22,306 bases of DNA, from positions 1-22,306 of the forward strand of contig JBBRMZ010000065.1 of the NCBI GenBank assembly GCA_038230555.1, in the 5' to 3' direction. The notes beneath the pieces are model-generated. The model saw nothing but the letters and a program-made list of their open reading frames with translations. It was not told the DNA's origin and made no database searches. Each line of letters opens with the position of its first letter. The stretch's first letter is position 1. Position numbers and translations under genes: made by a program. This DNA is from Chitinophagales bacterium. GTDB lineage: Bacteria; Bacteroidota; Bacteroidia; Chitinophagales; Saprospiraceae. Below, piece by piece: positions 15,966-16,105 of the stretch.

Positions 15966-16105
15966 GGTGAATGGTAAATGGTGAATGGTAAATGAGGAAT
16001 GGTAAATGAGGAATGGTAAATGATGAATGGTAAATGATGAATGGTAAATGAGGAATGGTAAATGATGAATGGTAAATGATGAATGGTAAATGATGAATGA
16101 GAAAT
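15966..16105. repeat. heptamer array, 20 units, with 14-bp higher-order period (GRKGAAT-GGTAAAT)
   Basis: Alternating variable units (ggtgaat/gaggaat/gatgaat) and constant units (ggtaaat), starting 7 nt after the DUF4835 stop. 140 nt without a single C on the + strand. Confidence 0.95.

Follow-up and report, generated by a model that had tools for sequence, protein, structure and literature searches.

A C-free heptanucleotide array past a DUF4835 gene, probably a partner-less member of an intergenic repeat family of a Saprospiraceae-like genus

Introduction

Tandem repeats of heptanucleotides occur in excess in scattered lineages of bacteria, and for decades they have been without an accepted function or origin. 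In heterocystous cyanobacteria, the STRR units CCCCAGT, TTGGTCA and CAACAGT were reportedly described by Mazel in 1990. TAACTGA repeats occur in the Beggiatoaceae, in cyanobacteria and in a few Bacteroidetes (MacGregor 2015, PMC4679880), and GGGAATC / GGGGAYT repeats are found in Xanthomonas and Nostoc, the published heptamer-rich genomes (Rehm 2015, PMC4692102). As for placement, the "forward" TAACTGA repeats lie just before starts and the "reverse" ones just after a stop (PMC4679880).

The repeats considered here belong to the same class. With the known heptanucleotide long simple-sequence repeats (the cyanobacterial STRRs of Calothrix/Anabaena, TAACTGA of Beggiatoaceae and GGGAATC of Xanthomonas) they share tandem 7-nt units that are strictly intergenic, many dispersed loci, a patchy and lineage-specific distribution, occasional inverted pairs, and the placement of one orientation just before starts and of the other just after stops. 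They differ in their unit, AATGRTR, which is new and C-free; in their host, a Saprospiraceae-like genus; in a polarity rule that is quantified here (233:5); and in their tie to PF05635 cassettes. All the marks of the class are present, namely at least three tandem 7-nt copies, a non-coding location, dispersal and an excess of period 7. They are not cyanobacterial STRRs in the strict sense, since the units are GGTAAAT/GATGAAT/GGTGAAT and the host is a member of the Bacteroidota. A literature search for the unit strings returned chance matches only.

Two other systems invite comparison. The REP sequences of enterobacteria are dispersed copies of one imperfect palindrome of ~35 bp, and they have a dedicated RAYT transposase. 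Like REP/BIME elements, the arrays described here are abundant intergenic elements that lie after genes and can form hairpins in transcripts; unlike them, they are tandem 7-mers of many sequences and mostly single-armed.

The other system is the intervening sequence (IVS) of 23S rRNA, whose ORF-bearing form is known from Leptospira, Coxiella burnetii, Brucella and Haemophilus (Warrier 2016, PMC4990558). The IVS of Coxiella is a selfish element with a 28-bp terminal stem that is cut by RNase III and with an ORF for S23p (PF05635) in its loop, and strain-variable tandem heptamers (GACAGAT) lie at its 5' RNase III cut site (PMC4990558). In Xanthomonas, S23p forms a pentameric toroid (PMC4990558), and PF05635 resembles Avd, the accessory protein of DGRs (PMC10053308).

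The array that is the starting point of this work lies in a window of 22,306 nt, which is one whole contig (C65) of an assembly of 4.73 Mb in 362 contigs, with 46% GC and 97% completeness. The genome is that of a member of the Bacteroidota, whose RNase R is 55-57% identical to those of Saprospiraceae and Lewinellaceae MAGs.

The array between the DUF4835 and FAH genes

The flagged array (15966..16105, + strand) consists of 20 heptamers of family A (AATGRTR) in the purine-rich orientation, called X in what follows, and it can be read as 10 dimers of a variable unit and GGTAAAT. Tandem Repeats Finder places it at 15963-16108, with period 14, 10.4 copies, 94% matches and a score of 243; this row and the reading of the units confirm the run of 20 units with a 14-nt superstructure that an earlier note on this DNA had described. 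From 15966 the order is GGTGAAT GGTAAAT twice, GAGGAAT GGTAAAT twice, GATGAAT GGTAAAT twice and GAGGAAT GGTAAAT once; up to 16105 there follow GATGAAT GGTAAAT twice and a final GATGAAT GAGAAAT. The alternation of a variable unit with a constant GGTAAAT, which had also been claimed, holds for nine dimers but not for the last pair, which ends in GAGAAAT. Because identical dimers adjoin, the array appears to have been duplicated recently in steps of 14 or 28 nt.

The composition is A59 G45 T36 C0. The absence of cytosine from the + strand extends even further than had been supposed, over 171 nt (15946-16116). Stop codons are present in all three + frames, as stated before (9/8/8), together with 8/7/9 ATG codons. 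The complement is open in all three frames, again in agreement with the earlier reading, with zero stops and with no ATG, GTG or TTG in any of them. The spacer (15960-16159) is unstructured on both strands, with folding z values of -0.12 and -1.25 against shuffles. The end of the array pairs with the downstream flank at -6.2 kcal/mol, the same as in shuffles.

The neighbouring genes are readily recognized. The DUF4835 gene (15057..15959, + strand; Pfam PF16119, E 2.5e-88) has a C-terminus (..VGF*) that is conserved in relatives and ends 6 nt before the array. On the other side, 54 nt separate the array from the ATG of a fumarylacetoacetate-hydrolase-family (FAH) gene (16160..16768, + strand; Pfam PF01557, E 5.9e-47). 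The array has no partner arm. Could it still be an IVS-type hairpin element with a PF05635 gene? This reading is ruled out, since both the partner arm and the PF05635 ORF are missing; neither an ORF of this kind nor a remnant of one is found in 16106-16159. No Rfam family was matched anywhere in the window. A short string, ATTCAAC, occurs at 16150-16156, 3 nt before the FAH start, one mismatch away from the complementary unit ATTCATC. It may be the vestige of a lost 3' arm, judging by its letters and position, and it is too short to be separated from chance. No second strain was matched by exact-protein look-ups (DUF4835, FAH) or by two metagenome scans with the flank sequences.

Tandem repeats are prone to slippage, the arrays of this genome break the assembly more often than chance, and GG runs recur every 7 nt in the flagged array. 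On such grounds, the array might modulate the FAH promoter, either as a contingency (phase-variation) spacer or as a weak two-tetrad G-quadruplex. A role of this sort is extremely improbable. The array is upstream of any promoter elements (-33/-7), so that a change in its length leaves their spacing unchanged, and both flanking genes are housekeeping genes. The contingency spacer next to a promoter that the earlier note envisaged does not agree with a location past the stop of a housekeeping gene, 54 nt before an ATG and outside both the coding region and the promoter elements. As for the G-quadruplex, the phased GG runs that suggested it are indeed present, but they are only GG runs, with no GGG among them, and a canonical G-quadruplex takes four runs of at least 3 G. 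At start-abutting arrays in general, the Bacteroidetes -7 motif TAnnTTTG is not enriched; upstream of genes as a whole it occurs 569 times, versus 157 for a control motif.

The window holds further arrays, and the relatives that had been noticed near 4131, 5641 and 14932 are real, with limits at 4128-4147, 5641-5704 and 14932-14985. Upstream of DUF4835, the stop codon of coaBC (13707-14936) falls inside the first unit of a family A array of 7-8 units (14932..14985, + strand). A degenerate family A array (5641..5704, + strand) fills the spacer between two minus-strand genes, with gaps of 9 nt to the start of ORF 5326-5631 and 11 nt to the stop of an Smr gene; the mRNA at this point would have the G-poor complement as its leader. 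The smallest is a mini array of family A with 2.9 units (4128..4158, + strand), 10 nt past the RNase R stop. Read from the sequence, its last GATGAAT (4138-4144) pairs with ATTCATC (4152-4158) to give a miniature two-armed hairpin. Finally, a family B heptamer array, TAGCTAT x5.3 in the AGCTATT orientation, lies in the divergent Smr spacer (6896..6932, + strand).

In the right part of the window, an ORF of 613 aa for a NERD-UvrD-type helicase (19425-21266) was left uncalled because it is under the codon-usage threshold. Its low score agrees with a possible foreign composition of the contig right of ~16.8 kb.

Period-7 arrays across the genome

Period 7 dominates the short tandem repeats of this genome: Tandem Repeats Finder gives 716 rows (20.8 kb) for period 7, whereas the neighbouring periods 6 and 8 have 162 and 186 rows. 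The units fall into superfamily A (AATGATG, AAATGGT, AAATATG and ATGAGTT types) and superfamily B (AGCTATC, AGCTATT, AGCTGTT and AGCCGTC types). The regular expression proposed in the earlier note, run over the whole genome, returns 61 arrays and bears out the claim of a dispersed family; with one mismatch allowed per unit, family A comprises 134 arrays that cover 4.9 kb. A control with the reversed pattern is invalid, as GGTAAAT reversed is a rotation of GGTAAAT. Within the genus, 19 of 24 genomes contain the four-unit family A pattern; among 16 other families of the order, only 1 does.

The arrays are confined to spacers. By crude ORF-based gene calls, which make 81% of the genome coding, only 9 of the 134 family A arrays are in called ORFs; 16 are at contig edges and 109 lie between known neighbours. 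For period-7 arrays with at least 2.8 copies, the corresponding figures are 407 intergenic versus 30 in ORFs. Contig ends are touched by arrays 15 times, versus 3.7 expected, which indicates that the arrays break assemblies.

One region stands out for its density. On contig C17, from ~6700 to 18300, ten family A arrays occur within 12 kb, all in one orientation and nearly all directly past stop codons. The same region carries an UpxY/NusG-like gene, a DegT-type aminotransferase and a frameshifted PF05635 cassette, and it is probably a polysaccharide-synthesis locus.

Repeats of other periods are also present. Tandem repeats of 11 nt (ACGGCTTATGT / AAGCCGTATAT types, ~85 arrays, plus ACCTGACTCAT) occur genome-wide and, in the window, at 11044-11074 and 18677-18711. 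They occupy the central part of long spacers, where the gaps to the left and to the right have medians of 230-300 nt, and do not obey the end-abutting rule of the heptamers; they are often at contig edges and form composite modules with GACCT-type motifs. In G019, a PF05635-free genome of the same genus of which the first 20 contigs were scanned, there is no period-7 excess and a strong excess of period 9 (318 rows/Mb), so that another repeat period seems to dominate there.

Position and polarity of the arrays

The arrays do not lie at random within their spacers. Among the 109 family A arrays between known neighbours, the purine-rich strand has its smaller gap at the 5' end in 94 (p=4e-15), and a coding sequence is within 15 nt of the 5' end in 70 cases versus 6 for the 3' end. 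The 70 end-abutting arrays divide into 39 that come after the stop of a gene on the same strand (median gap ~6 nt) and 31 that adjoin the start of a gene on the opposite strand (median ~10 nt). From the point of view of the mRNA, family A thus appears as (AAUGRUR)n after stop codons and as (YAYCAUU)n, followed by ~10 AU-rich nt, before start codons.

The same holds beyond family A. Over 14 heptamer families, the left end of a spacer carries one orientation and the right end its complement, with 233 consistent and 5 inconsistent arrays; examples are AATGATG (26/1/1/21) and AGCTATC (25/1/0/15). In superfamily B, AGCTATC comes after stops and GATAGCT before starts. In two relatives that were sampled, the counts are 36:2 and 12:0, and AAATGGT and AATTATG keep their orientation. 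The published placement of TAACTGA is the same pattern. An analysis of array position against stop codons and gene orientation had been asked for in the earlier note, and it reveals a strong bias (94/109; 233:5). That note had also observed that the arrays of the window share the + strand polarity regardless of the direction of the genes. This is true of the four arrays within the window, because each abuts the left end of its spacer, but it does not extend to the genome, where 66 are on the + and 68 on the - strand.

Part of the orientation follows the local GC skew. Agreement for family A is ~70% (67:31 at +-10 kb, p=3.5e-4), and the skew of contig C65 is positive, matching its arrays. In stop-abutting arrays, the G-rich strand is on the locally G-skewed strand in 32 of 39 cases, versus a gene-strand baseline of 52.7% (p=1.7e-4); start-abutting arrays show no bias (16/31). 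The stop-abutting bias may mean that the replication strand influences which of the arms expands, a suggestion that compares array orientation with local skew in a fragmented assembly.

What could impose such a polarity? Avoidance of upstream AUG codons in leaders fits family A, but it is ruled out as the cause by family B, which is free of ATG in both orientations. Descent from hairpin elements, the polarity of which is unchanged by the orientation of insertion, fits all families, and requires that one arm is lost frequently.

The polarity also bears on Rho. A rut site takes 70-80 nt or more of unstructured RNA that is rich in C and poor in G, and the minus-strand RNA of the flagged array is such a stretch: as the earlier note had anticipated, it is an unstructured, G-free and C-containing tract, with 32% C, 0% G and a predicted fold that leaves it fully unpaired across the array. 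RNA heading into coding sequence would read this complement and load Rho, by which antisense or read-in transcription would be stopped, while sense transcription would be spared by ribosomes starting ~10 nt downstream. Rho is encoded in the genome, the complement of family A arrays is G-free, C-rich and predicted to be fully unpaired, and under the polarity rule RNA that enters a gene from either end reads the G-free strand of this family. The idea is the best of the four functional ones in the earlier note. As an explanation of the arrays, it is nevertheless unlikely: superfamily B follows the rule too, with an entering strand that has G>C, the G-free strand is the sense leader 8-12 nt before 31 start codons, and the arrays at 15966 and 14932 are missing from orthologous spacers.

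The complementarity of leaders and trailers raises another thought. The family A arrays that abut stops (39) and those that abut starts (31) are complementary to each other and belong to different genes; no gene or spacer carries both. Purine-rich 3' trailers could then pair with the complementary 5' leaders of other genes, and start regions would be occluded or substrates of RNase III made. Such a network is very improbable: it is purely inferential, the gene set looks like ordinary housekeeping, and the arrays turn over quickly between species. Pairing of leader and trailer across one gene is ruled out, given that 0 genes have both family A arrays.

Hairpins and orthologous spacers

Arrays do occur in complementary pairs. 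Of those within 600 nt of each other, 19 pairs are inverted versus 5 direct, and two-armed brackets, mostly of superfamily B, can be seen at C41:2005-2140, C89:2817-3208 and C26:19025-19130; family A contributes one at C1:10959-11163. Still, an inverted 9-mer elsewhere in the own spacer accompanies only 46 of 311 end-abutting arrays (~15%), and the remaining ~85% are solo. When the first 40 nt of co-directional spacers are paired with the last 40 nt, the median is unshifted and there is only a heavy tail, with 28 vs 10 at or below -25 kcal/mol. A classical MITE reading is not favoured; by reading alone, the bracket cores are without obvious similarity.

The orthologous DUF4835-FAH spacer is instructive. 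At this locus the relatives are ~50% identical in DUF4835 and 72% in FAH. In five of them, a hairpin with a heptamer 5' arm and a complementary 3' arm lies directly past the stop (z -4.6 to -10), and extra units of the 3' arm extend up to the FAH start. The heptamers are species-specific (AATGGTG, TGATAGT, GAGTGAT, ATGAATG and others), and the arms stay complementary. In other relatives, the spacer contains an ordinary terminator-like hairpin (three species) or is an empty 34 nt (one species). The spacer of the present genome has z +0.9 and no partner arm. As for coaBC-DUF4835, the spacer is empty in most relatives, with a conserved length of 36-38 nt. The arrays at 15966 and 14932 are absent from the orthologous spacers, and therefore they are regarded as lineage-specific gains rather than conserved elements.

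Very long, near-perfect palindromes are present in the coaBC-DUF4835 spacers of relatives (L098, L100, L108, L109 and L116) and downstream of DUF4835 in two other loci (L103 and L106). Their arms are 40-100 nt long, with z down to -14, and they are not made of heptamers. Several types of hairpin element have colonised the spacers of this genus.

PF05635 genes between inverted arrays

This genome has three PF05635 loci, and each lies between inverted heptamer arms, from three different families. The bracket on C38 is (AGCTATC)8 ... GCTGATA and that on C116 is (ATATGAA) ... (TTCATAT); on C17, a frameshifted copy (16577-17108) is enclosed by the family A arms (GGTAAAT)9 ... (ATTTACC)3. In all three, the 5' arm starts right past the stop of the neighbour and the 3' arm ends at the boundary of the next gene. 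The two complementary arms of an IVS are found at each of these loci. The likeness to the 23S rRNA element consists of a PF05635 (S23p) ORF inside the loop of a long stem made by terminal inverted repeats, and of the heptamers in the stem of Coxiella; the difference is that the elements described here, known from sequence alone, lie between protein-coding genes, have whole heptamer arrays as arms, and mostly lack cargo or partner.

The arrangement extends to other species. In 27 further species of the genus, the median pairing energy between the upstream and downstream flanks of PF05635 genes is -66.9 kcal/mol, versus -37.1 for mismatched flanks, and 18 of the 27 are beyond the 5th percentile of the control. 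Judged by eye, ~24 of the 27 have inverted arms of short tandem repeats, each species with its own unit, and the 5' arm has G>C in 24 brackets versus 4. Four further PF05635 genes, one from each of four other families in the order, show the same bracketing (4/4).

Does the presence of the gene go with an excess of period 7? The comparison covers this genome and the first 20 contigs of six relatives. The PF05635-bearing genomes (this one and three relatives, 4/4) have a period-7 peak, with 151-410 rows/Mb and a ratio to periods 6 and 8 of 3.0-5.0; the PF05635-free genomes (3/3) have none, with 52-77 rows/Mb and ratios of 0.8-1.6. Fisher's p is 0.029 and Spearman's rho 0.84, for seven genomes that are kin and not independent.

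These data can be read in a stronger way, by which PF05635 (23S-IVS protein / DGR-Avd-like) cassettes would have produced the heptamer arrays or would use them as their homing substrate. The pentameric four-helix-bundle protein would bind arrays of 7-nt period and either generate and maintain them genome-wide or direct its own gene into heptamer hairpins. We consider this rather unlikely; if it were true, the fact that the X strand always points, 5' to 3', away from the gene next to it would be a signature of the process. That the arrays are simply decayed PF05635 cassettes is ruled out: there are 3 genes versus ~700 arrays, and no PF05635 remnants were found in the empty bracket cores. Distant arrays of X and of its complement, X-prime, can also enclose ordinary genes, such as those for IscU, MGMT and ATP synthase c. 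A link to a reverse transcriptase was not found either, as the only RT-domain ORF of the genome (C56:21863-22525, a 528-aa open frame; PF00078, E 1e-13) is not next to any PF05635 locus.

A related possibility is that the arrays are bound, in a 7-nt register, by a multimeric nucleic-acid-binding protein, either the PF05635 homopentamer or cold-shock/S1 proteins, which would act on RNA stability, translation or the maintenance of the arrays. PF05635 genes are embedded between arrays, and PF05635-free genomes are without the period-7 excess; S23p is a pentameric toroid (PMC4990558) from a family that includes the DGR protein Avd (PMC10053308), and CspB binds heptamer repeats with one protein per heptamer (PMC4679880). 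Nevertheless, such a role is quite improbable. The sequences of the units vary widely among families and species, which argues against a sequence-specific reader, and the seven genomes belong to one genus and are not independent. Moreover, the ring-shaped proteins invoked in the earlier note receive no support: TRAP and HutP were not found (PF02081 and PF09021, in a genome that is 97% complete), and the array is without UAG, whereas targets of this type have spaced GAG/UAG triplets. Among ring-shaped proteins, the PF05635 pentamer, which that note did not consider, is the only one with a link to the arrays.

Conclusions and perspectives

In summary, the flagged array is probably an orphan member, that is, one without a partner, of a genus-wide intergenic heptanucleotide repeat family, with no function specific to its locus. 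This reading rests on the fact that the array is solo, that it has no partner arm, cargo or structure, and that it is absent from orthologous spacers. At most, it is most likely a C-free, stop-rich and unstructured trailer of DUF4835 or an intercistronic spacer, and the locus itself is ordinary for the class. The earlier note held that the family had no described function, and this stands: the class to which it belongs is that of the known but functionally unexplained heptanucleotide repeats. What is new is the AATGRTR family and its uncultured Saprospiraceae-like host genus.

The family as a whole behaves like the arms of IVS-like hairpin elements. For most copies, the flagged one included, we infer this from the paired copies, the relatives and the PF05635 loci. 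Arrays would be the arms, or the surviving single arms, of such elements. They would grow and shrink by replication slippage, in the flagged case in 14- and 28-nt steps that would have produced the superstructure of dimers, and a period of 7 would not be tolerated in reading frames, which would confine the arrays to spacers. Where X and X-prime are both present, a long hairpin brackets the spacer, and the RNA of paired copies would fold into double-stranded stems like those that RNase III cuts in 23S rRNA IVSs. Against this explanation count the ~85% of end-abutting arrays that are solo, and the skew bias of the stop-abutting arrays (32/39), which a model of hairpin arms does not predict.

The link between PF05635 and heptamer arrays was not made in PMC4679880 or PMC4692102, and the polarity rule, which is quantified here, is to our knowledge not stated in the literature examined. 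The fragmentation of assemblies by the arrays matters for the binning and annotation of these Bacteroidota. Together, the polarity rule and the embedding of PF05635 genes turn the puzzle of heptamer repeats into questions that can be tested. Does the PF05635 pentamer bind the arrays? Are paired arrays sites for RNase III? And does the polarity come from selection on leaders and trailers, or from the mechanism that generates the arrays?
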